Virus record (IMG/VR): IMGVR_UViG_3300031783_000001
Origin: an uncultured virus (IMG/VR IMGVR_UViG_3300031783_000001)
Taxonomy: Duplodnaviria > Heunggongvirae > Uroviricota > Caudoviricetes
DNA length: 64,000 bases
Strand: one strand, 5' to 3'
Positions 3,112-33,965 of the stretch are shown one piece after another (the stretch's first letter is position 1; every line of letters begins with the position of its first letter). The translations under genes and the position numbers were made by a program. The notes beneath the pieces are model-generated. The model did not search any database and was not told the origin of the DNA. It saw nothing but the letters and a program-made list of their open reading frames with translations.

Positions 3112-3113
3112 AT

Positions 3114-14735: not shown

Positions 14736-15133
14736 TTAGCAACAGTTGCTAACTTCTGTCTACAAGTGTATATTTATAGCATAAACTTCTAAATATGGTG
14801 AGGAAGAAAGAGGTGCGCAGCGGCTGAAAATTTTTGTCTAGTTTAGTATATTTACGTACAGCGGGGAGAGCGAGTCAGCTGCCCAACAAACCGTCAACCG
14901 CAAGATGGAACGGGTGCGGGGTCTTACCCATGTAAGGCAAAAAAGCTGGCAAGTTCTCTCCGTAGCCTTCGCCTTCTCCTGCCTTGAGAGTCTTAGAGAC
15001 TTCTCTCCCTTGAAGAGAGTAATCCTCGCAAGGGATTGGGTAGGAGCGGCGAAACGAAACGGGCTAGTCCCTCCCTACCTGGTCAGGGGACGAATGCACT
15101 AAATATGTACAGTTTTGTATAGTTTGGGCCAGG
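14736..15133 (+). mobile_element. Non-autonomous IS607-like mini-element (left end + promoter + omegaRNA/right end), copy 1
   Basis: Follows GAGG; starts TTAGCAACAGTTGCTAA; 3' ~270 nt match 30986-31262; ends ...CCAGG (CCAGG is duplicated, so the end could be 15138). Confidence 0.88.
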
Positions 15134-15294
15134 CCAGGAAAATCTTATTACACCATGTGATAATTTAGTGTTAATGTCCCCGTAGCTTATTTTAGGGGAT
15201 AGCATATGCTTAGCAACTTTACATTTTGGTAGCAAACTATTCTCTTGACTAAGTAACATAGGGAAATATACTAGTTTAGCTAAGGATTAAAGAT

Positions 15295-15560
15295 TTTAGG
15301 CTTGTTACTCGGATAATTTAGGTACGGTAGAGAGAATAAGTTAGCTATCTAACAAGTGTTTAATCGTGAACTGGAACCGACTAGGGTGGCTACAATTCCT
15401 ACAAAAATTTAGCAAATTCTGTCTGTGGGCTTTGCCTTCTTTTGTCTTGAGAAATTCCCCGACTTCTTTCCCTTGAAACGAATACTAATTTCAAGGGATT
15501 GGACAGGAGTAGAAATAAGGTTAGTTCCTCTCAGTTAGGTCAGGGGACGACTATGTAGAT
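15295..15560 (+). mobile_element. Older decayed copy of the IS607-like tnpB 3' end/omegaRNA
   Basis: cttgttactcggata..., ttgccttctttt.tcttgaga, cccttgaa, caagggattgg, ggtcaggggacga align with 30960-31225. Confidence 0.7.
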
Positions 15561-15582
15561 TTGCCCTATAGCAGCTCTCTCA

Positions 15583-16626
15583 TTATCCAGAAAGATATTC
15601 GGAAAGCTTGGGTCTTCTTTGCAGTACTTCGGAGTGAGTCGCTATAACTAATGTCCCATGTTTAGATGCATTTTTAATCATTTCTCCCAACACTTCTTGA
15701 GCTGATAGACTCAAACCTATCTCCGGTTCGTCGATAAGTATGACCGATGGTATTATCTCTAAAGGCTGTAAGAGAAGTGTTGATAGACATATAAACCGTA
15801 ACGTCCCATCTGAAAGTGATTCAGGTGGATGGATTCTATTGTCTTGACCTATCCAATTTAGACGGACTCTCGGTGAATTAACTCTTTGATCAGGAACGAG
15901 ATGAAAACCAGCGAATCCCTCAAAAACTTCCCTAACAGTATTTGCAATTTCCTGATATGCTTCTGGATAAGTTCTTTGCAAATAATACAGGTAAGCTGCA
16001 ACGTTGCCGCCGTCCCACCACAGCCTGTCTACCTGATTAATATCTACTGAGCCTTTTATTCGAGAAGTCCAACCTGTGTCACAAAAGTGATAGACTATAG
16101 ACGATAGGAAATCTTGATAGACATAGCATTTCTTGTTCTTATTTACCCTATACCATTTTCCAAGTTCGCTCTCAGTATGCGGATATTTAGATATTACCTC
16201 CCTTGTGATATTAGTTTGTCCTTTATCCTGATATAACAAAACTTCCTCCGCTATAAGAAGTCGATTATGGTCTAGAAAAAGCTTAACTGCGTATCCGTCT
16301 CTGTTCATCGTGCTTTCATCTACGAACCAAACCTCTATCTCAATCTCCCTAGTCTTTTGGAGCCCGCCATGTAATATTTCAGCGGCTCCTCCTTGTCTTT
16401 CTACATATAGCTGGAAGTCACCTACAGCTAAATGGTGAAGCATGCCAAAAATGCTGAGAAAAGCAGACTTGCCTGAGCCGTTAGGGCCAGTTATAAAGTT
16501 GTATCTGTCCAATTCTAGGCTAAAATCGTCGAATAGTTTATACCCTTTTACCCGAATACTTTTGAGAAATCTACTGCCTTTTTCTTTCATGTTAGTTAGG
16601 CTTTTATCTTTGCTCAGCTCTTTCAT
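15583..16626 (-). CDS. ABC/AAA_21-type ATPase (AbiEii/OLD-like superfamily)
   Basis: Walker A GPNGSGKS, signature LSDGT, Walker B ILIDEPE, H-loop IATHS; ends shortly after the H-loop. Confidence 0.88.
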   Translation of the reverse strand: MKELSKDKSLTNMKEKGSRFLKSIRVKGYKLFDDFSLELDRYNFITGPNGSGKSAFLSIFGMLHHLAVGDFQLYVERQGGAAEILHGGLQKTREIEIEVWFVDESTMNRDGYAVKLFLDHNRLLIAEEVLLYQDKGQTNITREVISKYPHTESELGKWYRVNKNKKCYVYQDFLSSIVYHFCDTGWTSRIKGSVDINQVDRLWWDGGNVAAYLYYLQRTYPEAYQEIANTVREVFEGFAGFHLVPDQRVNSPRVRLNWIGQDNRIHPPESLSDGTLRFICLSTLLLQPLEIIPSVILIDEPEIGLSLSAQEVLGEMIKNASKHGTLVIATHSEVLQRRPKLSEYLSG

Positions 16627-16640
16627 AAGTCTATGAAGTT

Positions 16641-17177
16641 TTATTTTTGTTCTATCATGTATGCTCTTAGTATCCTCCTTTGTGTGTACTCGTCAGTTTT
16701 GAAGGGATTAACGGCTGAAAGGCCGTATGTAACCTCTGTGAATATTTTATTCGGGTATCTTTCTCTAAGCATGCTTATAGTTATAGAACTTTCCGGAGAG
16801 TCATTAAAGATGATTAGAAATTCACCTTCTAGTTTTTCTATTTCTTCTATATTCAACATATCCAGTGTTACAGCCTTATATGGTGTAACGAGACCACCAA
16901 GAACGACAATGTTTAGGTGGTCATGTTTAGTGTGTAGTTCTGCTGCGTCAGATACTGTAGGTACTAAGACGTACTTACCTGCCTCTTCGCGTGCCTTAAA
17001 ACTTAGATTACGCAGGTCTTCTATAAATTCATCCAGAGCACCTGTGTAAGCCAATTCCAGTACCCTTTTGGCTAAACTTTTCCCGTACTTCTGAGAAAAC
17101 TCGTATGGCCTCATATCTCTTCCTATTTGGGTCGAAACTTCAATGGTTTTTGACGTAGTGATTAATTTATAGGTCAA
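16641..17177 (-). CDS. Hypothetical protein
   Basis: 178-aa ORF directly upstream of and co-oriented with the ATPase. Confidence 0.65.
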   Translation of the reverse strand: MTYKLITTSKTIEVSTQIGRDMRPYEFSQKYGKSLAKRVLELAYTGALDEFIEDLRNLSFKAREEAGKYVLVPTVSDAAELHTKHDHLNIVVLGGLVTPYKAVTLDMLNIEEIEKLEGEFLIIFNDSPESSITISMLRERYPNKIFTEVTYGLSAVNPFKTDEYTQRRILRAYMIEQK

Positions 17178-17182
17178 TAAAC

Positions 17183-17467
17183 TTATAGTATGTCATTTTT
17201 ATTGTCATTATTTAGAACAATTGCCGCACTTAATAAGATATTGCCTAATAGATTTAATGTTATTAATGTTATTGCTAACCAAGTAGGTTTAATACCAGAT
17301 ATAGCCCAGATTGTCCATATAACAGATAGGAGCCATAAGAAGTAAACGATGACACGACCCCAATTGAATATCATACTTATCATGGTATCGAAACAACGCC
17401 ATACCGCGTAAGGGAGTAAAACAGAAATGCTGATTAGCAAGCAGTAAGCTCTGTCAGCTCTGCACAT
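17183..17467 (-). CDS. Small membrane protein, paralogue of 19602-19787
   Basis: Hydrophobic helices; WTIWAISGIKPTWLAITLIT versus WTVYAIIKIRPVSLAMTMIT. Confidence 0.6.
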   Translation of the reverse strand: MCRADRAYCLLISISVLLPYAVWRCFDTMISMIFNWGRVIVYFLWLLSVIWTIWAISGIKPTWLAITLITLNLLGNILLSAAIVLNNDNKNDIL

Positions 17468-17723
17468 CTAAGCCAAATGGAGTTTGGCTGTTATTTGTAA
17501 GAAGATGTAAAAATCTTTCAGATTTATGCTCATTCGCGTTTACACGAATAAACTAATATGGGCTCTACGCACTCAAAATAATACTCTTGTATTGAAGAAT
17601 CTAGATTGTGATAAGTATCAGGTGTAATCGCTTCCTCAACTCTATTCTTTATATCAGTCATCTTATTACGAAAAACAGTAATCTTATTTTCTGCTTTTGT
17701 ATTGATAACAATATGATTACTGT

Positions 17724-19274
17724 CTAAATCAGTTGGAACGTTGTTATCCCGAAAATATTATTTTTGTTGGTCAAAAATTCTATTTTTACTCTCTCATTAA
17801 TGAATGTGTTTCTAATTATGTCATAAATAGTCGTATTCCTTTTATACTCAAAAAAGTTTAATATTTTATCATAATTCACAACATGACTAGTCAGAAACTG
17901 ATCTGTATTCTTTTTATATAATATTTTTATGACTTGATTTGCGTTTGTACTGATTATTAAACCAATGCAGTCATGATCATTATCCCTGCTAAGAATTCTT
18001 CCTATTACTGTAGCTTCTCTTATTGATTTTATATTACCTATTAATTCCGTTAGCTCTAATATTTTATACTTGTACAAATCATTTTTTAGGTCGTAGTACA
18101 TGTATAATGCTTTTAAAATATTTTCTTTACTATCTTTAATTAATATAGCAAAAAAGTTGTTCTGATGTATAAAGATATATTCTGGTTTATAATTCCTGTA
18201 AATTATGTAGCCGTCTTCGTAACTAAATGTAGGGCTGCTCCCATCTTTTTTCCATATTTTTAAGTAACTACTATTATACATAAAAAAGACTTGGTTGAAT
18301 TGTAGATTACGGAATATACATAGTATTTTCCCTTTTTCATCAATGTCAAATGTATAGGATTTTTCCTGATTGTCATGTTTTAAGGCTGCACTACCAATTA
18401 ATATATCTAAAATATTACTACTATACTGGCTCATTGGTATTATATGCAGGTTAGTGCCTACGAACATGAAAGATCTATCATCTAATTTCAGTATATATGA
18501 ATCGGATGGGTCGTCAGCATCACTTTTTCTTGTATACGATTCAGATTTATACACCATCTTACCTGTAAGTAAATCGTATATAAATGTGAAGTAATCTTCT
18601 GGTGGATTGTAGTCTTCTTCATAACCTTCGTCGTCTTCATCATTCTCTTTGTCACGTGCCACATATTTCATATAATATTCCTCATAATATTCATCGTCTT
18701 CCGCGTACTTATAACAATCTACTTTATAATATTTATTTAGTATAACATCGGCGTATCTTATGCCTTCACAATCGTTCATTGCTTTCTCACAATCATCGCA
18801 ACCGGGGTCTAGTTTGTTTATACCTGTGGATACCCACTTCATTGTTTCGGGCGAAAGCTCATAGTATCTAATAAATGATCTAGTAAGTCTATAACTATCA
18901 AGTTGTACAAAACACACTGTGAACGGCTTTTGAGTGTAGGCGAAACTATTGTATTTTTTGTCATTTTCTTTTATCAAACTTTTTAGCCCATCTATGATAA
19001 AACCTATTTTATTTTGGATAGTGTGGTCTTTGTTTATATTATGCGGTTTAATTCTATAAACGAGTACAAAGTCTCTGATAACTTTGTTAATAATATAGTC
19101 TCTGCTACAAAGCACTATTATGTTTTCATAAGCAAAAATATTGTTTTTTGATTTTTCTATAATAGCTAAATCTTTATTATAAAACACGTCAAAAACATCA
19201 TTCTGATTTTTATGATACTTATAATACTTTTTAGTCTTTATCTTAGGCAGACTATTGGTAACTTGTAGCAGCAC
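17724..19274 (-). CDS. Hypothetical protein with an acidic low-complexity insert
   Basis: 516 aa; AGGTATATTT 5 nt before GTG; an open alternate frame continues to about 17530, so a frameshifted tail is possible. Confidence 0.75.
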   Translation of the reverse strand: MLLQVTNSLPKIKTKKYYKYHKNQNDVFDVFYNKDLAIIEKSKNNIFAYENIIVLCSRDYIINKVIRDFVLVYRIKPHNINKDHTIQNKIGFIIDGLKSLIKENDKKYNSFAYTQKPFTVCFVQLDSYRLTRSFIRYYELSPETMKWVSTGINKLDPGCDDCEKAMNDCEGIRYADVILNKYYKVDCYKYAEDDEYYEEYYMKYVARDKENDEDDEGYEEDYNPPEDYFTFIYDLLTGKMVYKSESYTRKSDADDPSDSYILKLDDRSFMFVGTNLHIIPMSQYSSNILDILIGSAALKHDNQEKSYTFDIDEKGKILCIFRNLQFNQVFFMYNSSYLKIWKKDGSSPTFSYEDGYIIYRNYKPEYIFIHQNNFFAILIKDSKENILKALYMYYDLKNDLYKYKILELTELIGNIKSIREATVIGRILSRDNDHDCIGLIISTNANQVIKILYKKNTDQFLTSHVVNYDKILNFFEYKRNTTIYDIIRNTFINERVKIEFLTNKNNIFGITTFQLI

Positions 19275-19315
19275 TAACTAAATATACCTAAACATGAAAT
19301 AAATTATGACAAACT

Positions 19316-19520
19316 TAGTATATTTACATAGCATACGATGTGCATTGTGACTAAAAGCGTACAAGTATCGTATTTACCTTATTGATGAGCAGGTAGTGTT
19401 CTTTGCTAAGACCTTCGGATGCTGTAGGTTTGTCCGAAACAAAATGCTGGAAAGGAAACTGTAGGATTACAAAAATAAAGAACTCATCCAACAAATCACA
19501 CCCGTCAAATATAAAGATGT
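19316..19520 (+). pseudogene. tnpB: Decayed 5' fragment of the IS605 tnpB with its promoter
   Basis: ttagtatatttacatagc followed by ctaaaagcgtacaagtatcgtattta...gtgttctttgctaagaccttcggatgctgtaggtttgtc, matching 6011-6215, with stops. Confidence 0.85.
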
Positions 19521-19601
19521 TGCGTTCATGTAGTTCTATGTTGATTTTGTCCTATAACTTGTAAACTTTGTAGATGATTTTTAATAAATCTATTTTTATA
19601 G

Positions 19602-19787
19602 CTACTCATCCCAAAAATCATTTGTGATTGTTACAGAAGCGGTGATAAGAAATGTACTAAGAAACATAAATGTAATCATTGTCATTGCTAAAGAAACGGG
19701 TCTAATTTTAATAATAGCATAAACAGTCCAAATGATCCATAATATCCATAACCCAGTAATAATTATGTTTTTCCAGCGGTGCTTCAT
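19602..19787 (-). CDS. Small two-helix membrane protein
   Basis: 61 aa, two hydrophobic segments, paralogue of 17183-17467. Confidence 0.6.
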   Translation of the reverse strand: MKHRWKNIIITGLWILWIIWTVYAIIKIRPVSLAMTMITFMFLSTFLITASVTITNDFWDE

Positions 19788-19871
19788 AGTAGTATGTTTT
19801 GTGCGTGAGCTATTATGGTACCGCAGTAACGACGCAAGGCATTTCGTCGAAAGACAGACGAAGCTACCTTT

Positions 19872-20692
19872 GTGCTCTCGGGCTGCGAGATATCTGCGCC
19901 AGGATTTTCACTTCAATACGACTCTGAAGTCCCCTATCAGTCTGCTGTGGTATTTTGTTTCGAGCTTCATAAATCCCAAGCCTTTATAGACATGACAGCC
20001 AGTAACAGAGCCCATGTGTACTATGGGATAGGTTTAGTCCCTGTCGACTTCTACCTACTCAACAGAAACGATAGCAAGAAACTTATAGAATGTTATTTTA
20101 AAGAAGGCTATATCATAAAAGATTTTATCCATAAATGCGATAAGTACATGAATATAGAAGAAATGAGCCAAGAAATGCCATTTTTTACGTCGAGAAAAAT
20201 GTTTTCGTACATATTAAAAAAAAGACCACTGATAGTTAACATATTGGATAAAGGTCTAATGGCAGTTATTGAGGTTAGCAACAGTTGCTACTTTCTGTCT
20301 ACAAGTGTATATTTATAGCATAAACTCCTAAATATGGTGGGGGAGAAAGAGATGCGCAGCAGCTGCAAATTTTTGTCTAGTTTAGTATATTTACGTACAG
20401 CGGGGAGAGCGAGTCAGCTGCCCAACAAACCGTCAACCGCAAGATGGAACGGGTGAGGGGTTCCATTCAGATGGAACAAAAAAGCTGGCAAGTTCTCTCC
20501 GTAGCCCTCGCCTTCTCCTGCCTTGAGAGTCTTAGAGACTTCTCTCCCTTGAAGAGAGTAATCCTCACAAGGGATTGGGTAGGAGTGGCGAAACGGCTAG
20601 TCCCTCCCTACCTGGTCAGGGGACGACTGTACTAAATATGTACAGTTTTGTATAGTTTGTGTGACCAGGTATTGAAAATAGAAGAAGAATAA
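19872..20692 (+). CDS. Hypothetical protein interrupted near its C-terminus by mini-element copy 2
   Basis: Removing 20275-20669 rejoins ATT GAG G|TA TTG AAA ATA GAA GAA GAA TAA (...AVIEVLKIEEE*). Start position uncertain. Confidence 0.65.
20275..20669 (+). mobile_element. Non-autonomous IS607-like mini-element, copy 2
   Basis: GAGG|TTAGCAACAGTTGCTA ... TTTAGTATATTTACGTAC AGCGGGGAGAGC ... GTGTGACCAGG; clean insertion into an ORF at a GG core. Confidence 0.92.
20399..20690 (+). ncRNA. Putative omegaRNA (TnpB guide RNA scaffold plus ~20-nt guide)
   Basis: Segment conserved in four copies, begins immediately after the promoter motif and ends at the element right end. Structure was not computed. 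Confidence 0.6.
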
Positions 20693-20743
20693 CATAAAAC
20701 TCACAACTGTCCTTTTAGCGTTTCGACACAATAAGTCCTCATC

Positions 20744-20816
<73 letters not shown>

Positions 20817-20883
20817 CCCGCCATCGGTCTGAATATTCAGAGCAAACCATCAAAACTACACAAAGTAATTCACTTCTTTTCGA

Positions 20884-21819
20884 TTGCTAAGCATGCTTAT
20901 GCTTAGCGTACGTCTTACGAAAGACCCTATTCTCATTAATGACGATAACTTTCGTGAGTATCTAAAGCGTATTCGTAAATACCAACCTATATCTCGTGAA
21001 GAAGAGGTAGAGCTTTTGCTGCGAGCTAAAGAAGGTGATGATATAGCCATTGACAAGCTTCTGAAAGCCAATCTGCGCTTTGTAGTCTCAGTCGCCAAAA
21101 GATTCGCAGCTAGCAATCCAACAGCTAACATTAACGACCTTATTAGTGCAGGCAATCTTGGCCTCTACGAAGCTATCATCAGCTTCAAAAAAGACAAAAT
21201 AGGTCAATGCAAACTAATTAGCTACGCCATATTCCATATAACAAAAAGAATAAGAGAAGAAATACACAATAACTTTTCTATACTTAAGATGAGTGGTCAT
21301 GATAAAACTCTTATAACAAAAGTAATGAACATGATGAAATACGACAGCACCATGACCTACGAAGATGCAATAAGCATCGTGCTAAAACAACATAACCTAT
21401 CCGACAAGAAAAAAAAAGACCTAAAATTAGCTATACAAAATCTAAATACTATACCACTATCAGGAGTATTGCACTACCAAAAAGAGTTAGAAGATTATAA
21501 ATATGAAGATTTAGCTTACGACGAGAAAGAATTTGAAAAAGTATTAGATAACGAATCAATAATAAAATTTGTGCATAATGTGCTGGATAAGTGTATTGAA
21601 TTATATCCATATAAAAAAATATGTTTTGATATAGTAAAACTACATCACGGAATATCCACAAAGTACCCTATGACCAAAAAAGAAATAGCTATACAACTGA
21701 ATATTAGTGTGGATAGGGTAAGAGACTATTACAAAGAAGGAATAAAAACAATTAGAGATTTTATACTTAAACATCAGAGTTTAGCAAAAGATGCTATGAT
21801 TCTGTTGAGTAATGTATAG
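20884..21819 (+). CDS. Sigma-70 family RNA polymerase sigma factor (primary-like, no region 1.1)
   Basis: Region 1.2 EYLKRI..YQPISREEEVEL; 2.1 ANLRFVVSVAK; 2.2 DLISAGNLGLYEA; region 4 MTKKEIAIQLNISVDRVR. Real start probably ATG 20893 or 20899. Confidence 0.93.
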   Translation: MLSMLMLSVRLTKDPILINDDNFREYLKRIRKYQPISREEEVELLLRAKEGDDIAIDKLLKANLRFVVSVAKRFAASNPTANINDLISAGNLGLYEAIISFKKDKIGQCKLISYAIFHITKRIREEIHNNFSILKMSGHDKTLITKVMNMMKYDSTMTYEDAISIVLKQHNLSDKKKKDLKLAIQNLNTIPLSGVLHYQKELEDYKYEDLAYDEKEFEKVLDNESIIKFVHNVLDKCIELYPYKKICFDIVKLHHGISTKYPMTKKEIAIQLNISVDRVRDYYKEGIKTIRDFILKHQSLAKDAMILLSNV

Positions 21820-21852
21820 ATTTTGAGAACAGCAGATTATCTATTCGCATGT

Positions 21853-21863
21853 TCAGTATATTT
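21853..21863 (+). promoter_or_regulatory. Class-1 promoter motif TAGTATATTT (representative copy)
   Basis: Motif or 1-2-mismatch variants lie 3-8 nt before the starts at 1009, 6029, 11144, 19274, 21872, 22455, 33096, 35565, 39486, 41710, 47575, 47673, 60311 and 60347. Confidence 0.8.
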
Positions 21864-21871
21864 AATAAACT

Positions 21872-22423
21872 ATGGACGATTTACTTTTAGGTACTGCAGT
21901 TCGTCAATTAGGTTTCCACAGTTCTAACAATTCATCTTTATTTCTTAATTCTGAGCAGGCACTATTGTCTGTTGGTTCTTATGAAGATAGTAATTATGGG
22001 CAGTTGGTAAATATTATACCTAAGGTATTTTTTTACTTTCACTATCCTGCTTACAAAGATGATTTATTGTTTAAGTCTCGAGTGTTACCTTTTTATAGAA
22101 GTTTAAACAACAATGGACTTACACATGTTATGTCTTATCGGGTTGACTTGGCAGCGCTATCTCAAAAAGTGTTGGCTTACCCGTTTAGTACTATCGGGGG
22201 CAACTATTACATGCGACCTAGTACGGCTAGACGGAATCATTATCAAATTGGAAACACAGCAACAAATGTAACGACTAATGTTTTAAATACTAACATAACT
22301 TACATCGGTGGCATAACTACTGTTGGTATTGTTGAAGACAATCCTCAAAATAATCCAATAGATTTTATTACATTCAAACTTCGGGATGTAGATTTAGTTT
22401 TTACTACTTTATTTACGTTATAG
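21872..22423 (+). CDS. Hypothetical protein, probably a virion/baseplate component
   Basis: 183 aa, directly upstream of the gp6-like gene; function inferred from context only. Confidence 0.6.
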   Translation: MDDLLLGTAVRQLGFHSSNNSSLFLNSEQALLSVGSYEDSNYGQLVNIIPKVFFYFHYPAYKDDLLFKSRVLPFYRSLNNNGLTHVMSYRVDLAALSQKVLAYPFSTIGGNYYMRPSTARRNHYQIGNTATNVTTNVLNTNITYIGGITTVGIVEDNPQNNPIDFITFKLRDVDLVFTTLFTL

Positions 22424-22454
22424 TATATTTTTTGTTTTTGTAGTACATTTAATC

Positions 22455-24155
22455 ATGTTACTATCTCGGATCAGGGACGATATAGTTAATATAGTTCGTT
22501 CTTACGGTTACGAGGGTGAGATAGCGGACATGTTAGTGGACGCTCTGTCGTATTATGTATCTGAGCATTTATTGTCTTTGGCTGGGCAGTATTACAACTC
22601 CTCTTTATTTAAGGCCAAGAATCCTGATGCCGTTTTGCAGCTTGGCTTAGACCACTCAGTACCTGTTTATCGTGGAGAAAACGCATCAGTCATATTGCGC
22701 ATACGAACTACTAATAACACACTAACCTTCGCACCCTTACAAGAAGTCTTTTCGTACGGGACACACTATTTCTATATTAAATCTAAACGTTACATCCAAA
22801 TACCTGCAGATACAACCTACGATCTCGAACTTGTATATTCCGACCAACAGGTTGCGATAGTTGAAAATAAGTTATCGCTTTTTAACACCGAAAGGGACGC
22901 TTTTACTATTTTTTTAGAAGAAGGCAATAATTCAACCTACCAAAGAGGGGCTAGAAATTTCATATCCAACTTTTATATTTTAAACGATAAACTGCCTATT
23001 AGTGAAGATGTAGCATTTTACGCTTTATACACTAAGGACAACAACAATTATAATGTTCTGTTACCATATACTAATACGCCCACTGATTTTTATTTTTTTA
23101 GTGTAGCTTATGAGCTTAATCAAGCTAATTTAATTACTGAGCTTTATCCTATATTGGTATTGACTACCCCACGATACGGTATTAACGTACGTTTGAATCA
23201 TAGGTACATAGTTAGGCAACTGGCTTCTGACGTTATTATAAGGACTATGTACTTGAATTATACCGAAAACTTACCACCTGACGATGTTTTGTCTTTAATG
23301 ATAGATCATGTTAACCGTAATTTCCCCGTCTTCCCTAGTGATACAGTTATTTTAGATGTTATTAGTTATAGACCGCCTACTGGTTTAGAGACTAATAGAT
23401 ACCGTATTGCTGAGTGGGCAAGATATAATGGCGTCATAAGAAGTGTTTCAGATATAAACCACTGGTTTTTAAATTTTTCTGATGTAAAGGTATATGATTC
23501 TAGACTAATTACAACAATCAAGACTGATAATAGCAACAATATTTCACTGTGGTACTATATACTATATATACCCAAAGGCAATGTGCGTATTAATGATATA
23601 CAAGATTTTATCATGGAACACCGTAAGTATATATATGGTTCTTTGCCTACTTTACCCATTAGTGCTTTGACCGCTAGTGTGTTGAGTAATAATTTTGTAA
23701 ATACTTACGTATTTAACTGGGCGCCTGCGGGAGCTAATCTGAATAACTCTAGCCCTCCCTGTCCTAGCGGGCAGAATTGTTTTAGTATACTAATCGTCCC
23801 TCTTACGCCGATAACTATTTATATAAGTGCTACATACATGGGTAGTTACGACGTCAATCTAGTACGTCAGGCGTATAGAAAAAGCTTAGAAAGTTACCTT
23901 ATGAAAATTATAGACAGTATAGACCCCATGGTATGGTTTTCTCTATTTACTCGCGTCGCTCACGTGAATTCGGTGCTGAGCTTCTCAATATCTATAAATG
24001 GCGTCGTAGTGTTCTCCATACCAAACACTAACGGGAATCAAAACAATAATATTATAAAGCTTGTAGATTATGAAACTATAGGTTCTTCTAACCAAATAGC
24101 TTATTATATTAGCGATTTTGATTTAGAAGGTATAACATCTTATAATATTTTGTAG
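22455..24155 (+). CDS. Baseplate wedge protein (T4 gp6 / baseplate-J-like)
   Basis: N-terminus YEGEIADMLVDALSY...SSLFKAKNPDAVLQLGLDHSVPVYRGENASVIL resembles the gp6 N-terminal pattern; later GLET...VIRSVSDI. Confidence 0.7.
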   Translation: MLLSRIRDDIVNIVRSYGYEGEIADMLVDALSYYVSEHLLSLAGQYYNSSLFKAKNPDAVLQLGLDHSVPVYRGENASVILRIRTTNNTLTFAPLQEVFSYGTHYFYIKSKRYIQIPADTTYDLELVYSDQQVAIVENKLSLFNTERDAFTIFLEEGNNSTYQRGARNFISNFYILNDKLPISEDVAFYALYTKDNNNYNVLLPYTNTPTDFYFFSVAYELNQANLITELYPILVLTTPRYGINVRLNHRYIVRQLASDVIIRTMYLNYTENLPPDDVLSLMIDHVNRNFPVFPSDTVILDVISYRPPTGLETNRYRIAEWARYNGVIRSVSDINHWFLNFSDVKVYDSRLITTIKTDNSNNISLWYYILYIPKGNVRINDIQDFIMEHRKYIYGSLPTLPISALTASVLSNNFVNTYVFNWAPAGANLNNSSPPCPSGQNCFSILIVPLTPITIYISATYMGSYDVNLVRQAYRKSLESYLMKIIDSIDPMVWFSLFTRVAHVNSVLSFSISINGVVVFSIPNTNGNQNNNIIKLVDYETIGSSNQIAYYISDFDLEGITSYNIL

Positions 24156-24156
24156 T

Positions 24157-26340
24157 ATGCCACTTATAGACAGAAATAGAAATAGACATATTATATACAA
24201 CTATCTACAAGATAATCATGTTGTTAATAATGGACAAGATTTTAATGTTGTATCTGTCGTTACTTCATCGGGTCTTTTTTCCTATCGATACAAGTATGCT
24301 AGTACAGGTTATATGGTGGGTTTATTAGACAGGTTTAGTCCATTGTCTGGTGCTTTAATACATTTTAGACCTAATGCTAACTGCGGGAACTTTGAGGTTG
24401 TGGCTTCTCACGGTTTTGAAGCCGACGAAAGCATACTATCCCTTTCTCTCGTACATAAATGGGTGTATAATAACCCTAGTATTATAACAGGAATTAAACA
24501 GAGAATTGTGGATTTTTTAGAAAGCGCATCTAAATCAGATATTAATGTAACTGCTGCTTTTATAGATATACTTGGTCCTATGGCAAATTTTGTAGGCAAG
24601 TTGTTAGGATATAATAGTGCTGATAGTTTAAGTGCTTTTTTGACTTCTGGGGCTTATTTGTTGCAGCAGGGCAAGGCTATTGTGCCCGAACAAGCGCTGA
24701 TTGCCTACGATGGCATAGAAATGCAAGATGTTAACTATACTTTCAGGAAGACATATGTCACTATAACCGATGAAGACCAGCTTAGTTCAATAGACAAAAC
24801 TATCAATGACCTACGGTATCTTGGACTCTTCCCTAGGCTATTAGGCTTTGATGACGACGATTTCATAAGCGATGGTCAGACTAAAATTGTTCATTTAGGT
24901 CCGAAGATGATAGGTGGTGATATTGCTACACTCCTAAAAAATTACGACGACCCGAAGTATAAAGAGTATCTCGTCAATGGTCTAGCATCCACTTTAATAC
25001 ATGAGGCGACCTTTAAAACCACTTTTGTAGACCTGGGTTTTAAGTCAAAAGGTGTGCTCAATGCTTATCAGGAGGTTGTAGAGGATGTGATTGGCTATAT
25101 AGAAAAGCAAACACGAGGTCACAAAGTGCCTAAGCCACCTAATTTCTCAGAGCTCCCACAACTTAGAGGTACTGCAGGTGGCCGTTTAGCGGGTGCCAGC
25201 TTCCGAATGGGGATAGAGCACGCCGCCATACTACTTATCATAGCCGTTACCGATATATGTAATAAAAACGAAAGAAAACTAGCCTACTTTCGTCAACAAG
25301 TTCAAGACACGTTCGACCTCACATTGGACAATAGTTTACATTACGATGCAATTTTATATGACCATATATGCGGCAAAGTTGTTAGACCCGATAATATAAT
25401 AAATCTTGATGATAATCAAATCGTTCGTAATCTTTTAAAACTAATATCGGATGCTTATGCTAAGGTCTACGAAATTTTCTCTACGGCATTGAATGGTAAA
25501 TACCCTTTTGATATTATGCGAGAAACTGAAAAAACTATTTCTGGCGATTCAGAAAACGAGAAATACTATTTCTTTAATCGTATTGTCATCGATTATAACT
25601 TACTAAACGAAAACGAAATAGACGATAAGGTGCGACAATATCTTGCTATTATACGAACTAGTCCATCTTTAGGTGAGTTTATAGGGGTTAAAGCACTTGG
25701 CCATTCTGCACTTTCTAAGTCAGATGTTAATTTTATAAACTTCTTACGGAAGTTTGGTATCTTACTTGCTTTGCCACCAGGTGGGTACCATTTTGTACAT
25801 AACTATAAGGCTGTCATTGTTGCACTTCTTAGAGGCAAACCATGTCTCAAACTAAGCTCACCATCAGACGAATTAGAAGAAAAGGTATATAAGATCAACT
25901 ATTATGGGTTTTCTTTCAGAAATATTCTTAGAAATGCGTTTGCGGATGTAAATGTCGTGCCAACTATTCAGTATATGATTCCTATAAATATACAGGTAGA
26001 GAATTCGGATACATATGTTTACTCTTCTAATCCTGAAAGGTATGGCGATTTTGGAGTGCCCTTATGGACTCGCCTGACCATCACAATGGGGCCATTTAAT
26101 GACTGGATATTTTTCTTTGGTAACTTCGTAGGTCTAGACAAATTAGCTAAGGCACTTAGGATTGATCCTGATATACCATCTACTGGTACAGCTGCTGAAC
26201 AACCAGGCTCTGGTAGTGATACCGTAGCGTTACCTCAAAACATTGGTACCCCTGCTTCACCAGGCGGGACACAAGCAAACAGTAGTACCAACACTAAACA
26301 AACTCTCGAACAATCCCTAAGGAATAGTGGTAGCACATAA
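24157..26340 (+). CDS. Hypothetical protein, probably a virion structural protein
   Basis: 727 aa, starts 1 nt after the gp6-like stop; low-complexity S/T/G/P tail. Confidence 0.65.
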   Translation: MPLIDRNRNRHIIYNYLQDNHVVNNGQDFNVVSVVTSSGLFSYRYKYASTGYMVGLLDRFSPLSGALIHFRPNANCGNFEVVASHGFEADESILSLSLVHKWVYNNPSIITGIKQRIVDFLESASKSDINVTAAFIDILGPMANFVGKLLGYNSADSLSAFLTSGAYLLQQGKAIVPEQALIAYDGIEMQDVNYTFRKTYVTITDEDQLSSIDKTINDLRYLGLFPRLLGFDDDDFISDGQTKIVHLGPKMIGGDIATLLKNYDDPKYKEYLVNGLASTLIHEATFKTTFVDLGFKSKGVLNAYQEVVEDVIGYIEKQTRGHKVPKPPNFSELPQLRGTAGGRLAGASFRMGIEHAAILLIIAVTDICNKNERKLAYFRQQVQDTFDLTLDNSLHYDAILYDHICGKVVRPDNIINLDDNQIVRNLLKLISDAYAKVYEIFSTALNGKYPFDIMRETEKTISGDSENEKYYFFNRIVIDYNLLNENEIDDKVRQYLAIIRTSPSLGEFIGVKALGHSALSKSDVNFINFLRKFGILLALPPGGYHFVHNYKAVIVALLRGKPCLKLSSPSDELEEKVYKINYYGFSFRNILRNAFADVNVVPTIQYMIPINIQVENSDTYVYSSNPERYGDFGVPLWTRLTITMGPFNDWIFFFGNFVGLDKLAKALRIDPDIPSTGTAAEQPGSGSDTVALPQNIGTPASPGGTQANSSTNTKQTLEQSLRNSGST

Positions 26341-26472
26341 TATTCTACACGAAGTGATAAGAGATAGCTTTACAAAAAGCTATTTATTTATAGCTTTAGC
26401 TTTTGCGTTCTAATATATTAATGGCCTTCGATACTTACCGATCTCGGCATTAATTTTTAGGGATTGAGGAGG

Positions 26473-26867
26473 TTAGCAACAGTTGCTAACTTCTGTCTAC
26501 AAGTGTATATTTATAGCATAAACTCCTAAATATGGTGGGGAAGAAAGAGATGCGCAGCAGCTGCAAATTTTTGTCTAGTTTAGTATATTTACGTACAGCG
26601 GGGAGAGCGAGTCAGCTGCCCAACAAACCGTCAACCGCAAGATGGAACGGGTGCGGGGTCTTACCCATGTAAGGCAAAAAAGCTGGCAAGTCCTCTCCGT
26701 AGCCCTCGCCTTCTCTTGCCTTGAGAGTCTTAGAGACTTATCTCCCTTGAAGAGAGTAATCTTCGCAAGGGATTGGGTAGGAGTGGCGAAACGGCTAGTC
26801 CCTCCCTACCTGGTCAGGGGACGACTGTACTAAATATGTACAGTTTTGTATAGTTTGTGTGACCAGG
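26473..26867 (+). mobile_element. Non-autonomous IS607-like mini-element, copy 3
   Basis: GAGG|TTAGCAACAGTTGCTAA ... GTGTGACCAGG; nearly identical to copy 2; downstream flank GCTGGCGGCACGTGCATCC. Confidence 0.92.
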
Positions 26868-26958
26868 GCTGGCGGCACGTGCATCCTATCTCCGCCGGGT
26901 CGTTGATGTTTGCCTTGCGTTGTCTCCGAATAAGCCGTACAATAAAACCTTACAGCGT

Positions 26959-27261
26959 ATGAAAGAGACTGGAAAACCTAAAAGAATAGTGCTCGAGTTA
27001 GCACTGCTGAACAGTCCAAGCTATCTGATCGACCAAATCAAGACTGTGTATCGTAAAGCGGTAGAAGACAGAACAACCTACCAAGAGGCAGCAGCCGCTT
27101 TAGGAACACCTGAGGCCATAGAAGCAGCACAAAAACTACTTTTGTTTGAACGGCATTATAATCGCCTTTCGAGCGACGAGCTGTACATGGAACTTTATGT
27201 GTTGCCATCAGTGGAGCGCGGTGAAAGACCACTATTCGGGGACAAAGAGTATTGGTACTAA
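26959..27261 (+). CDS. Hypothetical protein
   Basis: MKETGKPKRIVLEL..., about 100 aa, with a CCTTGCG motif upstream at 26913. Confidence 0.6.
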   Translation: MKETGKPKRIVLELALLNSPSYLIDQIKTVYRKAVEDRTTYQEAAAALGTPEAIEAAQKLLLFERHYNRLSSDELYMELYVLPSVERGERPLFGDKEYWY

Positions 27262-27338
27262 ATGTGAAGCAAACAACAAACTAATTAAATTCTCAATAAT
27301 ACAATTTTTACTGAGAAAAACATTAATAATAAAAGACT

Positions 27339-27995
27339 ATGATAACAGAAGAAAATAAAAAGCATTTGGCGTTGCTCAGACAGCTAATAGAAAATTACCT
27401 TTTTGATGAGCTGTCGGATGATGAAGAAGCCATAAAAGTAGCCAAAGACATTCTATCCGCCGCCTCTCTTATCCTCCAAAAAGCTAAAACCAAAGAAGAA
27501 TTGATAGGAGCCTATACTATGATTTGTGTCCGCCTAGCCTTCTTTGGTTATAACCACATAGCACACCATCAGGTGGATTTAGGTAATACATTACACAAGA
27601 TATCATTATCTCTATACGATTGTATAGATGTATATCTACCCAATAGCATAAAAGAGAATGAATTGGCAAAGTCGCTATGGCCTTATGATGTTAATGATAT
27701 AGAATCTATAAAAAATGCAATGAGTGAGTACATCTTTAACAATGTACTTATATTCGGGCCTGGATGTATATTTGTCCATGACTTCATTTCAAAGTACGAA
27801 AACAAAATAAAAGTAGTCAAAACTCCTCGTGAAGTCATGAAGGTTTATGACGAGATAAGATTGGACGCATGGATGCATTCATTGAGATGTAGCGCAGAGG
27901 GGGAGCGTCATGAGGCACTTAAGTACGAATTATTAAGCGACATTTTGCGTTTTATGATTTATGATTTTCTAGATTTGTTGCAATCAAAGAATTAA
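27339..27995 (+). CDS. All-alpha hypothetical protein, tandem paralogue 1 of 3
   Basis: Shares IENYLF..LSDDEEA, LWP, IFGPG and EALKY blocks with the next two ORFs. Confidence 0.85.
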   Translation: MITEENKKHLALLRQLIENYLFDELSDDEEAIKVAKDILSAASLILQKAKTKEELIGAYTMICVRLAFFGYNHIAHHQVDLGNTLHKISLSLYDCIDVYLPNSIKENELAKSLWPYDVNDIESIKNAMSEYIFNNVLIFGPGCIFVHDFISKYENKIKVVKTPREVMKVYDEIRLDAWMHSLRCSAEGERHEALKYELLSDILRFMIYDFLDLLQSKN

Positions 27996-28076
27996 TAGTA
28001 TAAGTAGAGGCTGGGAAGAAGCGGTCTAACTGATTGAAAATATGATTTTGCAAAATCTGATACAACGGCGAATACT

Positions 28077-28733
28077 ATGGTAACGCAAGAGAACAAAAAA
28101 CGTTTGCTAGCATTTAGGGAGCGAATAGAAAAGTACTTGTTTGAGAAACTGTCGGATGACGAAGAAGCTTTGAAAGTAGCAAAAGATATATTACCCTCCG
28201 CCTCACTCATTATCCAAAAAGCTGAGACAAAACAAGAATTGATAGGAATTTATGGCATGATTTCTGTACGATTAAACTTCTTCGGTTACATTCACGTAGC
28301 TTATCAAGAAATAGATTTAGGTAGTACGCTAAACAAAATATCAGTGTCTTTGTACGAATGTATAGAGGAATATTTGCCTAATAACATAAACGAAAATAAA
28401 TTGGTAAAGTCGCTATGGCCTTATGATAGTAAAGATATAGAGTCTGTTAAAAACGCATTGAGTGAGTATATCTTTAATAATGTATTTATATTCGGGCCTG
28501 GGTATATATTTGCGCATGAATTTATTTCAAAGTACGAAGATGATATAAAGGAAGCTCAAACTCCGAGAGAAATTATGAGAGTTTATGGTAAAATACGTTT
28601 GGAATCATTGATTCATTTATATGAATGCTGTGGAAAGAAAGAATATCATGAAGCACTTAAGTATGATATACTGGGAGAAATTATTCGCTTCATGATTTCT
28701 GATTTTCGTGATCTAATGCACTCAGAAAATTGA
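28077..28733 (+). CDS. All-alpha hypothetical protein, tandem paralogue 2 of 3
   Basis: 218 aa, colinear with the previous ORF. Confidence 0.85.
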   Translation: MVTQENKKRLLAFRERIEKYLFEKLSDDEEALKVAKDILPSASLIIQKAETKQELIGIYGMISVRLNFFGYIHVAYQEIDLGSTLNKISVSLYECIEEYLPNNINENKLVKSLWPYDSKDIESVKNALSEYIFNNVFIFGPGYIFAHEFISKYEDDIKEAQTPREIMRVYGKIRLESLIHLYECCGKKEYHEALKYDILGEIIRFMISDFRDLMHSEN

Positions 28734-28797
28734 CTAGTATAACTAAAAGCGCATTTCGATTTGTACTACCTTACAAACACATAAACTTTATAATACC

Positions 28798-29475
28798 ATG
28801 AGCACCCATTCTGTTAACAAAAAACTGCTTTTATTAAGAAAGACAATAGAAAGCAACTTATACGAAAAAATAAAGGATGACAGGGAGATCGCAGAGGTGG
28901 CCGATGAAATATTATTCGCATCTTCAACCTTTATTGAAAAGGCCAGAAATGAAAAAGAGCTTATTGCAATCTACGAAATGATTACAACGATGCTGGAAAT
29001 AGTTAGCGAGTATTGTGAACGTCTAGGCAATGCAGAATTAGGATACACACAAAGATATATAGCCAATGAGTTATATGAATGTATAAAACCATACTTACCA
29101 CACAACATAAGCAACGATGAGCTGGTAAAACTTTTGTGGCCTCATAACTGTCGGAATGTAACTTCACTGAAGGATGTGTTTCGTGAGTATATTCTTATAC
29201 ATGCATTGATTTTAGGGCCTGGGGATAACTTTGCGGATGAATTTATATCAATGTACGAATCAGAAATAAGCAAAGCCAATAAAATTAGAGACTTAATGCA
29301 AACTTATGAGGTAATTAAAAAAGAAGCAAAGGCAGTAGGACTTGAATATTACAATAGTGGTAATCGTGCCGAGGCGTGGAAGTATGGGGTTCTGAGCAAG
29401 ATTATAGGATTTTTACTGTCGGATTTTGAACATTGCTTATCTATGCCGAAAAGAACATTGAAGAGACGAGGCTAG
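28798..29475 (+). CDS. All-alpha hypothetical protein, tandem paralogue 3 of 3
   Basis: 225 aa; LWP, ILGPG, EAWKY; stop codon supplied by the left end of the adjacent IS. Confidence 0.85.
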   Translation: MSTHSVNKKLLLLRKTIESNLYEKIKDDREIAEVADEILFASSTFIEKARNEKELIAIYEMITTMLEIVSEYCERLGNAELGYTQRYIANELYECIKPYLPHNISNDELVKLLWPHNCRNVTSLKDVFREYILIHALILGPGDNFADEFISMYESEISKANKIRDLMQTYEVIKKEAKAVGLEYYNSGNRAEAWKYGVLSKIIGFLLSDFEHCLSMPKRTLKRRG

Positions 29476-31262
29476 CAACAGTTGCTAACTTCTGTACAAA
29501 TTTGTATATTTATAACATAGCATCTTTATGAAGTTTCGAGGTGTAGAAGAGTGTAAAGGATTTTCGATAGTTTTAAGATGGAGATAGTTGTAGTCAATAA
29601 GTGTAGGCCGAATCTATGAACAAAGAGGTTCTAAAAATGCTGACAGAAAAGAAAAGTAACAGCAACTTCGTAACAGTAGAGTGTTTATTGGCATTTGACA
29701 AAGACGACGATAAAAAGCGGGTATTAAACACAATGCGTAAGTTTTCTTCAATGGTCAGGTTTGCCTACAAAAGACTATTGCATGGAGCGGAAAGAAAAGA
29801 GCTGAAAAAACTGTTAGCCCAGAAGTATGGAATAAACACCAGGTATTCGGATGATGCCATACTTCTGGCGCAGCAAACTCTGGAATCTTGCATAGAAAGA
29901 GAGCAAAATCCAAAAAAGATTGTTTTTGGCACAAGAGCACTGTTTGAACAGCTAAAGAAAAAACACTTAACAGGTAAGAGTAGAGAGACACTAAGACAAA
30001 AATGGGAGGAAAGAAGGTATGGCGTTTTGTATTCAAGAGGGGGAAATCACTACATGGCAATCTAAACCTTAGGCTTGTGAATCTGGACGGTCAATGCCAT
30101 CTGAGAATTAATATAGGGAACGGCGAGTATGTATGGGCAAGGGTGATACGGTCAGCAAAAAGAAAAACAGACACGTGGATAGGCTTTGTTAGTAGCTTAG
30201 AGCAAACTGAGAAGACAAGCGATTGGTTCCCCTATACGGTACGACTCAAGCTAAGAAACGGGAAAATCTACGCACAGTTCAGTAAGGAAGAGAAGCTGCC
30301 AGAAGTAAGTATTACAAAGGATAACGGCGTCATGGGGATTGACATCAACGCGTACCCTTTTCACCTAGCACTAGTTCATACGGCAAAGGATGGTAACTTG
30401 GATAAGTATGAGCGAATCAGCTTGGACAAGCTATTAGAGGGCAGTTCAGAAAAAAGAGAATACTTAAGCTGGCAAGTTGCTCATCAGGTAGTAGAGATCG
30501 CGAAAAGAGAAAGAAAAGCGATTGTTGTGGAGAATTTGGAGAAGCTCCCAAAAGGTAGGAGAGGTGATGGGCTGCCTAAACTAAGACAGAGATTACAAAA
30601 GTGGATATACAAAGCGTTACTGCAGAAGATTGAGATTGTAGCGAAGCGGAATGGCATTCAGGTCATCAAAGTCAATCCAGCTTACACGTCAATCATTGGC
30701 AAGCTGAAGTATGCGCCGCTTTACAACATAGACAAGGACACAGCTGGTGCTTACGTGATAGCCCGGAGAGGTCTTGGATTCAAAGAACGCCTGCCTAAGA
30801 ACTATAAAGAACTTCTGAAAGATACAGAGTTTATATCTTATACAATAGCGAAGATTGAAGACAAGATCGCTAATCTCAAACAAGAAATACGAGAAGAGAA
30901 AAACGAGTACAAACGAAACAGACTAAAAAGTGCTCTTTGGAAAACACGAAAAGAATTAGACTTGTTACTCAGATACTTACGGGAAAGCGGGGAGAGCGAG
31001 TCAGCTGCCCAACAAACCGTCAACCGCCAGATGGAACGGGTGAGGGGTTCCACTCAGGTGGAACAAAAAAGCTGGCAAGTTCTCTCCGTAGCCCTTGCTT
31101 TCTCCTGCCTCGAGAGTCTCAGAGACCTCTCTCCCTTGAAGAGGGTAATCCTCACAAGGGATTGGGTAGGAGCGGCGAAACGAAACGGGATAGTCCCTCC
31201 TTACCTGGTCAGGGGACGAGTGTACTAAATATGTACAGTTTTGTATAGTTTGTGTGACCAGG
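29472..31262 (+). mobile_element. IS607-like element carrying a long TnpB, with tnpA deleted
   Basis: GAGG|CTAGCAACAGTTGCTAA left end, TGTAYA-type short direct repeats at both ends, GG core at ...GACCAGG. A short RIFDSFKMEIVVVN remnant near 29556-29597 may derive from a serine-recombinase tnpA. Confidence 0.8.
29616..31228 (+). CDS. tnpB: TnpB-related RNA-guided nuclease (no zinc finger, long C-terminal extension), split by a -1 frameshift at ~30044
   Basis: ORF 29616-30065 (RFAYKRL, YGINTRY, VFG, LYSRG) joins ORF 30002-31228 (GNLNLR, RuvC GIDIN, VVENL, VNPAYTSIIG, DKDTAGAYVIARRGLG). Confidence 0.85.
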
Positions 31263-32224
31263 CTACTTCAGAAACCGTAAGCAATTCAAACTGCCAAAGT
31301 TCAAAAATAAAAAAGATAAGCAGTCCTACACTACAAACAATGTACAAAACTCAATAAGAGTAGATTTTGAGAAAAGTTTGTTGTATCTGCCAAAAATAAG
31401 AGAAGGGATAGAGATTGAACTGCACAAAAGATTTGATGGTAAGATCAAGTCTGTTATTGTAAGTAGAACAAACGACGGTAAGTATTACGCTCCCATTTTT
31501 GTAGAGACTGAAAATCCTAGAAACAAAGTTGTAGAGCCTAAAAGCAGATCTTGTGGAATAGATTTAGGATTGGAACACTTTGTTACTGTTACTAATGACT
31601 TTGGAAGTTACAAAGTTGAACACCCGAAGTATCTTCATCGGGGTGAAGAAAGATTACGGAGACTGCAGAGGCGTTTTCACGGAAACAAAAGGTTCAAAAA
31701 ATAGCGAAAAGGCGAGACTGAGACTTGCCAAGCAGCACGCGTACATCAGTAACGCCTGTAATGACTTTCTGCATAAGTTGTCCAAAACCATCATTGGCGA
31801 AAACCAAGTCGTGGTGGTAGAGGACATTGGCGTGAAAGGCCTGTTGAAGACAAGACTTGCCAAATCGATTGGTGACAGCGGGTGGTCAAAGTTTCTGACC
31901 TACCTCAAGTACAAAGCAGACTGGTACGGAAGAACCTTCATTCAGGTAGACCGCTTCTTCCCATCCTCAAAACTTTGCCATCGCTGCGGGTACAAAAATG
32001 AAGACTTGGCTCTACATGACAGGACGTGGTGCTGCCCTAATTGTGGTGAGACTCATGACAGAGACATCAACGCGTCTACCAATCTTTACTTCGTAGGGCT
32101 AGGACAGCCCGAAGTTACGCCTGTGGAGCAGGCTCTGGTGGATGGCCGTAGTCCCAACGGACTACCTAAAAAGCTATCCTGCGACGAAACAGGAAGCTCA
32201 ACCTTTTACAGTTGAACAGTCCGC
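31263..32224 (+). pseudogene. tnpB: 5'-truncated, frameshifted IS605 tnpB with an intact right end
   Basis: Begins YFRNRKQFKLPKF directly after the IS607-like right end; frameshift near 31678; ends gttgaacagtccgc at 32224. Confidence 0.92.
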
Positions 32225-33735: not shown

Positions 33736-33757
33736 AGTTTTGAATCTTATGGTTCAG

Positions 33758-33831
33758 TGGTCTCGGCAGGACTCGAACCTGCAACCGCGGGATTAGAAAT
33801 CCCGTGCTCTATCCAATTGAGCTACGAGACC
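33758..33831 (-). tRNA. tRNA-Arg (UCU); CCA not encoded
   Basis: GGTCTCGTAGCTCAATTGGATAGAGCACGGGA-TTTCTAA-TCCCGCGGTTGCAGGTTCGAGTCCTGCCGAGACCA. Confidence 0.95.
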
Positions 33832-33834
33832 AGC

Positions 33835-33965
33835 GCGGACTGCTCAACTTTCTTCAGTTGAGCTTCCTGCTTCGTCGCAGGATGGCTTTTAGGGTAGCCC
33901 GTAGGGGCTACGGTCATCCACCAGAGCCTGCTCCACAGGCTTCACTTCGGGTCGTCCTAACCCTA
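33835..33965 (-). ncRNA. Stand-alone IS605 omegaRNA/right-end copy, 3 nt upstream of tRNA-Arg
   Basis: About 130 nt matching tnpB 3' end 7125-7255 (tagggttaggacgacccgaagt...gttgagcagtccgc) without the nuclease-coding part. Confidence 0.8.

Follow-up and report, generated by a model that had tools for sequence, protein, structure and literature searches.

The DNA analysed here, called the window throughout, is a 64,000-nucleotide (nt) stretch of a hot-spring mobile genome (IMG/VR record IMGVR_UViG_3300031783_000001). It holds four related transposon-type elements on the plus strand, with common ends: three gene-less mini-elements (mini1 to mini3) at 14736-15138, 20275-20669 and 26473-26867, and a full, tnpB-only element of 1791 bp at 29472-31262. 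The only gene of the parent transposon is predicted from its sequence to encode a TnpB-like RuvC nuclease without a zinc ribbon. An earlier note on this DNA had taken the minis for stand-alone expression units of an omegaRNA, the guide RNA of TnpB, together forming a distributed guide array. We compared the window with 91 relative loci, which carry labels such as L039, L011 and L025.

Anatomy of the mini-elements

A repeat search returned four in-register copies, at 14732, 20271, 26469 and 30858. Each element begins directly after GAGG, with its first base at 14736, 20275 or 26473 in the minis and at 29472 in the full element, and the right ends at 20669, 26867 and 31262 all read CCAGG, as the earlier note had described. 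The terminus of mini1 is GGCCAGGCCAGG, and its end therefore lies at 15133 or 15138. The same doubled CCAGG ending recurs at several other loci and, because variation there begins only past the second CCAGG, mini1 probably ends at 15138, with a guide that would start AAAATC..., five bases past the position given before. The size of about 395 bp put forward for all three minis is exact for mini2 and mini3, and mini1 is probably 403 bp long.

The minis are 93-97% alike. Aligned with the full element, they share left and right ends of about 75 and about 280 nt with it, and between these shared ends lies a segment of roughly 70 nt that is present in the minis only. Identity with the full element starts at 30986, and to the equivalent of this base the minis join TAGTATATT-TACGTAC; the alignment finds no such motif at the corresponding place in the full element, and the fusion noticed earlier is real. 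A mini is thus built from a left end, a second left-end module comprising a palindrome and the -10-like TAGTATATT, and a complete scaffold of about 280 nt running to CCAGG. In mini1 these are module A (14736-14813, ending in GAGG), module B (14814-14859, with TAGTATATT at 14844-14852) and the scaffold (14860-15138). Module B, motif and scaffold lie at 20353-20398, 20383-20391 and 20399-20669 in mini2, and at 26551-26596, 26581-26589 and 26597-26867 in mini3. The predicted guides, all on the plus strand, start at 15139 (15134 if the first CCAGG is the true end), 20670 and 26868. The full element has a left end with TTGCTA-17-TATATT (29482-29510) and a remnant of the start of tnpA, and its omegaRNA-type scaffold (30986-31262, plus strand) overlaps the 3' end of the gene, with a predicted guide from 31263.

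The open reading frames (ORFs) inside the minis are only remnants, 63-65 amino acids (aa) long, of the nuclease C-terminus. Successive minis are separated by 5539 and 6198 bp, their flanks differ on both sides, and the downstream flanks of the four elements are all different, which agrees with the earlier description apart from the five-base shift at mini1. They carry no protein gene, have retained both ends and occur in several copies whose flanks differ, and they are thus gene-less mini-transposons. The full element found no match in 50,697 phage records (blastn).

We rejected a further stretch, at 15296-15563 on the plus strand, as a fifth cassette. Homology there continues about 25 nt upstream into tnpB coding sequence, which marks it as a relic and not a promoter cassette: a decayed, 5'-truncated right-end fragment of a sister subfamily. 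On the minus strand, a 58-aa ORF (15083-15259) with a TAGTATATT motif 5 nt before its ATG enters the right end of mini1, and the insertion of mini1 may have changed the C-terminus of its product.

A conserved guide-RNA scaffold

To describe the scaffold we aligned 88 right ends, comprising the four in the window, 80 from metagenome or viral loci and four from Thermocrinis-type contigs of metagenome-assembled genomes at about 70% identity. RNAalifold gave 66 base pairs, 15 of them with compensatory changes, and addition of the terminal hairpin brought the number to 72. In this structure, which was derived from the same 88-end alignment that scored it, 97.9% of 6179 cells are paired, a share that falls to 43-50% once the 3' partners are shifted along by 1-3 columns; changes on both sides occur at 19 of the 72 pairs against 5-10 after such shifts, and the covariation score is 0.183 against at most 0.056, a value of 0.183 being reached by none of 500 shuffles. 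Folded with 20 nt of guide, the mini3 scaffold has a predicted energy of -119.7 kcal/mol (z -4.28), and none of 200 shuffles is as stable.

The first helix opens at alignment column 17 (window position 30987), one base past the fusion point. Across 75 distinct full-size copies, third codon positions have a majority fraction of 0.72-0.87 over the 360 nt before 30981 and of 0.92-0.97 past it, the variable hairpin excepted. Since third-codon conservation rises here, constraint at the RNA level begins at the point where the minis are fused. A conserved, structured RNA thus overlaps the 3' end of tnpB and ends at the transposon boundary, the arrangement that defines omegaRNAs, and by these comparisons the minis keep the whole of the covarying omegaRNA-type scaffold.

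A second left-end module with a promoter-like motif

The mini-only segment copies the layout of the left end, with GAGG or GAGA, a palindrome, a T-run with GTCTA, and GTATATTTA. An exact 18-mer is found in the window in the three minis only, and with up to three mismatches there are six matches against 0.24 expected, a number that 0 of 100 shuffles reached. By BLAST, the segment lies in L039 directly past the CCAGG of a full element and ahead of its own scaffold; in L011 the two-module layout is that of the minis, with the scaffold partly deleted; and in L085-type elements the segment core lies before a helix-turn-helix (HTH) gene. Because it occurs in these left ends, we read the segment as the left end of a sister lineage of the same insertion sequence (IS) family. 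Capture of a promoter from the host genome is rejected, the segment being a second left-end module of that family.

The earlier note had called TAGTATATT the commonest promoter motif of the window, and its placement upholds this. There are 12 copies, three of them inside minis; among the nine outside, eight lie at most 30 nt before the start codon of an ORF of at least 50 aa (58-1974 aa), and seven lie 4-9 nt before such a codon, where random comparison with twelve positions gave means of 2.4 and 1.06, respectively. This spacing before start codons points to a -10-type promoter that gives leaderless or near-leaderless mRNAs. In the minis TAGTATATT ends 7 nt before the A of AGCGGGG, and in the diverged L039 and L011 the 7-nt spacing from TATATT or TATATC to AG(C/T)GGG is retained despite base changes. 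A sigma-70 consensus scan also places the left-end TTGCTA-17-TATATT in all four elements.

Motifs of the TAGTATATT type stand 4-9 nt before the starts of many window genes without a Shine-Dalgarno sequence (for example at 11148, 19279, 21856, 33106, 39493, 60317 and 60331), which points to -10-only promoters and leaderless mRNAs across the window; the window also encodes its own sigma factor (20884-21819).

Promoter-like modules raise the question of whether the minis act mainly as mobile promoters, reading through into downstream genes, for example from mini2 into the tRNA-Met and sigma-factor genes or from mini3 into the gene family at 26920-29475. Each mini does carry two outward-facing promoter-like modules with no terminator-like site past the right ends, and mini2 lies 75 nt before tRNA-Met on the same strand. 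Mini1, however, faces genes on the opposite strand, the flanking genes own TAGTATATT-type motifs, and retention of an entire 280-nt structured scaffold is left unexplained. We regard a mainly promoter-based role as highly improbable.

IS607 affiliation and end motifs

The bases preceding the left ends are strongly conserved. Over 61 distinct 12-nt left flanks the last four positions are G in 61, A in 51, G in 57 and G in 58, and position -5 is G or T in 50, which substantiates the GAGG motif proposed in the earlier note. The right ends read CCAGG, and in most of the 88 aligned ends the DNA beyond is unrelated. A GG core dinucleotide at both boundaries, together with a conserved flank motif, is characteristic of IS607. 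In a study of IS607-type elements (bioRxiv 10.1101/2023.11.20.567912), GG forms the core at both ends, the target-adjacent motif (TAM) is TGGG and the right end, TCGG, differs from it by one base. Here the GAGG flank and the CAGG right end differ at -4 (G versus C), a pair that by analogy fits the published logic of a TAM and its look-alike in the transposon end.

The recombinase that typifies IS607, a serine recombinase (TnpA) with a MerR-type HTH, is not encoded by these elements, and a whole recombinase gene stands beside this nuclease in 0 of the 91 loci. What the relatives retain at their left ends is an HTH remnant of 31-66 residues. In L085, L060, L038, L081, L082, L088 and L090 it is a 64-66-residue HTH peptide just before the left end, and many other relatives have 26-36 residues of a comparable HTH joined in frame to the nuclease. 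Among 67 longer relatives of the left-end remnant, PF00239, the resolvase domain, is found in 65, nearly always together with a MerR-type HTH; these are 178-203 aa long, except for three shorter, truncated ones, with up to 87% identity. The other two are fusions of HTH remnant and nuclease. Sequence descent thus identifies the elements as IS607-type, derived from carriers of a serine recombinase, in accord with the affiliation suggested earlier.

The TnpB-like nuclease

In the window the nuclease gene (29616-31228, plus strand) is broken into ORF1 (29616-30065) and ORF2 (30002-31228) by a one-base frameshift near 30040-30046. Contig L025 shares this frameshift and has 99.5% identity over 4146 nt. 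The length of whole relatives is 537-560 aa. A protein search with ORF2 gave 2391 matches at E <=0.001 among 8000 scored candidates, and the best 120 of the 2391 are mostly 530-570 aa long and 79-95% identical. An apparently single-frame copy is present in 79 of 92 sources, and putative working partners exist in the community.

The NCBIfam models TIGR01765 (N-terminus) and TIGR01766 (TnpB-related) match the protein, and guided_TnpB falls below its cut-off. Only the first 28 of 60 positions of the Pfam TNB zinc-ribbon profile match, and a C4 zinc ribbon is missing: when 10 sequences, 38-86% identical to the first one, are aligned, no cysteine pairs are seen between the YTS motif and D-K-D. In the same alignment D243, E306 and D375 are invariant. 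An AlphaFold model built from it is of moderate quality, with a mean predicted local distance difference test (pLDDT) of 68.5 and values below 50 at residues 457-537. Its top Foldseek matches are Cas12f, Cas12k, ISDra2 TnpB and ISFba1 TnpB (E 1e-10 to 1e-6, probability 1.00), and with Fanzor2 included the matches span E 1e-10 to 1e-4. Among solved chains, sequence comparison places Cas12f1 and TnpB-like proteins nearest, with the similarity confined to the RuvC-II region. The family protein is thus, by sequence and model, a predicted RuvC nuclease of the TnpB/Cas12f superfamily that has kept D-E-D and lacks the zinc ribbon.

Residues 457-537 (window 30986-31228) make up most of the stretch encoded by scaffold DNA, and in relatives down to 38% identity the frame is open through the whole scaffold. 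This DNA may have a double role, as protein-coding sequence and as template of the RNA, with most of the constraint coming from the RNA.

Large TnpB branches without a zinc finger are already in print (Altae-Tran et al. 2023, PMC10691335), and the family here resembles them in having lost the zinc finger between RuvC-II and RuvC-III while keeping the catalytic residues. We rejected membership in the zinc-finger-less clade RIIIr-4 of that study, where histidine replaces the RuvC-III aspartate, whereas our family keeps D-K-D, this being the sole criterion of the assignment.

Guides and flanks

We searched for the 16-nt flanks, as predicted guides, in the window and the 91 loci with up to three mismatches. 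Each guide has a GAGG- or CAGG-adjacent match at its own flank only, bar one three-mismatch chance match beside GAGG. Tandem scaffold units with guides aimed at other DNA, the hallmarks of a guide array, are absent; what we see is three independent insertions of one mini lineage, 5.5 and 6.2 kb apart. Since each guide matches its own flank alone, the term array is only a metaphor. The sequence does support the part of the earlier proposal that concerns the layout of each unit, a whole covarying scaffold behind a genome-typical promoter motif 7 nt ahead of it.

This result bears on the homing role that the earlier note had envisaged, in which the minis form a dispersed guide set that cuts related, co-infecting genomes lacking the insertions and so converts or excludes them; that is homing between genomes rather than repair at the donor site. 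The genome around the minis does look mobile, having numerous methyltransferases, a DnaE and a sigma factor of its own, and two tRNAs, and a 2026 review (PMC13565253) discusses homing between co-resident plasmids or phages as a possibility. Yet the guides find no match beyond their own flanks, no relative with an empty site was found, the 64-kb window holds no phage hallmark gene and the local nuclease gene is broken. We consider this use of the minis improbable. Equally little weight attaches to a version in which the nuclease of an intact member, supplied with three or four promoter-driven guides, would cut the empty sites of related incoming genomes. In that version the insertions and their neighbouring genes would be copied into a competitor or would exclude it, to the profit of the mobile genome, much as phage homing endonucleases bring about marker exclusion, but here borne by a transposon.

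The right flank of the full element is itself a canonical zinc-ribbon tnpB, truncated at its 5' end (31263-32215, plus strand). The L025 contig matches 27116-31261 up to a break at L025:4144, and past the right end it has different DNA, a paralogue of the 225-aa gene. Because the right flank in L025 differs, the window junction at 31262/31263 is a later rearrangement exactly at the transposon end. We rejected targeting of two intact canonical tnpB genes by the full-element guide: the near matches, with one or two mismatches, are adjacent to AAGGA, AAAGA and CGAGA, not GAGG.

RNA and DNA runs and other forms of the family

Twenty-four sequencing runs, six of them RNA, contain part of 20700-26460, and from these we compared metatranscriptome run X6 (RNA) with DNA runs X2, X4 and X3. 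All four are available as contigs, which cannot show RNA starts, and the depths given here are mean contig values that add up every organism with similar sequence. In three scaffold bins the summed depth is 1501, 2063 and 566 in X6, 4233, 2328 and 687 in X2, 890, 497 and 168 in X4, and 25, 5.5 and 19 in X3; over the body of the nuclease gene it is 114-137, 6309-7312, 703-927 and 1519-1615, respectively. In the three DNA runs, depth over the gene body mostly equals or exceeds that of the scaffold bins. Most neighbouring bins in X6 have a depth of 0-13, and the left-end part of a mini (14782-14827) has 4.3 against 209 in X2, with 2714-6322 against 7556-11303 at 15054-15056. The X6 bins at 17606-18807 are uncovered, and we draw no conclusion from them. 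These contig depths, which pool organisms, hint that scaffold RNA is enriched more than tenfold over the gene body and the left part of the minis.

The runs also contain other forms. A joint of 29521 to 30969, with five extra letters between, occurs in X6, X2 and X4, that is, in one RNA and two DNA runs, and it represents a second, independent mini form whose left-end promoter lies about 12 nt before the scaffold. Contigs of X2 and X4 span from unique flank into the mini1 right and mini2 left ends, and in X4 alone into the mini3 left end; those mini junctions therefore exist in other samples. Elsewhere, L039 has a mini of module B and scaffold, and L011 has two forms. The L039 unit (L039:1982-2299) stands directly past the CCAGG of the full element, as would be expected where two family members have become joined in tandem or through a circle. 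Derivatives with broken scaffolds are found at L011 2620-3215, at L051/L055 and at window positions 15296-15563.

Such derivatives invite another view, that the minis are inert relics: deletion products moved a few times by a recombinase acting in trans, their RNA unused, their scaffold conserved merely through youth, and the promoter adjoining it since every left end carries one. Several deletion forms with damaged scaffolds do exist, the close similarity of the three minis makes them young, and the window has no working nuclease or recombinase. Against this, the fusion sits exactly where the first helix begins, the 7-nt promoter spacing is retained in L039 and L011, and the independent second form again sets a left-end promoter close before the scaffold. 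In addition, one hairpin differs among the minis by a block that still pairs, and scaffold sequence is over-represented in the RNA run. We judge the relic view to be unlikely.

Genomic surroundings

The window contains methyltransferases, DnaE, a sigma factor, two tRNAs and many ORFs without a family. Six DNA methyltransferase genes lie at 2-892, 1009-3111, 3114-5102, 7830-8762, 11356-12267 and 43792-45240. Upstream of the full element are three tandem paralogues of 218-225 aa with no known family (27339-27995, 28077-28733 and 28798-29475), the third of which takes its stop codon from the first bases of the transposon left end. A search of IMG/VR gave no relative of a 727-aa gene beside mini3.

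The canonical zinc-ribbon tnpB genes lie at 6029-7246, 34348-35592 and 31378-32215, and sequence similar to their 3' ends recurs in stretches of about 60-220 nt at 33835-33961, 35612-35674, 43776-43837, 49906-50022 and 8677-8895, one of which abuts tRNA-Arg (33757-33831). These stretches may represent a second TnpB family, either as solo right ends or as minis.

Discussion

We think it probable that the minis are non-autonomous, gene-less IS607-type derivatives that serve as guide-RNA units, supplied in trans with the nuclease. We propose a model for transcription start, use in trans, cleavage and homing. The module-B promoter would start transcription at most one or two bases away from the first scaffold helix, and the transcript would cross the right end, gaining about 16-20 nt of flank as its guide. 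Nuclease from an intact full-size copy elsewhere would bind the mini RNA and cut an element-free site, 5'-GAGG plus the flank sequence, and repair from a filled copy would restore or spread the mini. Movement to new ...GG sites would require a serine recombinase in trans.

Several observations weigh against guide-RNA units served in trans. The window's only copy of this zinc-ribbon-less nuclease gene is the frameshifted one, and no resolvase domain was detected in the 47 window ORFs scanned, one per locus and most of at least 100 aa. The sigma-70 scan over the whole region gave 60 sites against 57.3 in shuffles, and because this is no enrichment the case for a promoter rests on the placement of TAGTATATT before genes. 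Rfam models, RAGATH-18 included, gave no scaffold match at gathering score over the whole window, and on 30800-31320 at E up to 10 there were two noise matches only. The contig depths bear the limits given above, and since derivatives with broken scaffolds exist, deletion alone yields many forms. Precise loss of a mini, leaving an empty site, was seen in 0 of the 15 joints listed of 24, and in L065 and L075 the homologous flanks are too diverged at the insertion sites for empty alleles to be read; neither is evidence against mobility.

Beyond the biology of these elements, the minis are a clear example from nature of a TnpB guide RNA that is separated from the nuclease gene and has its own putative promoter at the first scaffold base. 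They support the idea that these transposons have modular RNA and protein parts and that elements with a guide alone can depend on nucleases produced elsewhere. The family is also a resource: a scaffold of about 280 nt, a predicted 5'-GAGG TAM and dozens of intact zinc-ribbon-less nucleases of about 540 residues from hot springs, which are candidates for testing as a thermostable RNA-guided enzyme.

Comparison with known systems

A search of the published literature, which was not exhaustive, found no description of natural IS607-type guide-only minis. Among IS607 elements with TnpA_S and TnpB, the Clostridium botulinum IStron (10.1101/2023.11.20.567912) has, as here, GG at both boundaries and a guide RNA that overlaps the 3' end of tnpB; its TGGG flank and TCGG right end differ at -3, whereas GAGG and CAGG differ at -4. 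In the same report an engineered mini-IS without both genes was excised by the IS607 recombinase in trans. ISFba1, whose TnpB works with a RAGATH-18-derived RNA (PMC11061315; PDB 8iaz), offers a further comparison, the scaffold here being without an Rfam match. Unlike IStron and ISFba1, the family described here has a nuclease of about 540 residues without a zinc ribbon, no intron and, in the window, no recombinase gene.

The minis are not a new kind of system. Gene-less IS605-type elements often encode omegaRNAs that require TnpB in trans (Meers et al. 2023, PMC10055086), and minis bearing guide RNA are thereby already in print for IS605. The PATE-like IS200/IS605 elements of Geobacillus stearothermophilus in that study are protein-less, keep both ends and the scaffold, and depend on TnpB from another element, much as we propose for the minis. 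They are moved in single-stranded form by a Y1 HUH transposase, whereas the elements here have IS607-type ends, a GG core and descent from serine-recombinase carriers, and they differ further in their scaffold of about 280 nt, to the first base of which a second left-end module, with its putative promoter, is fused.

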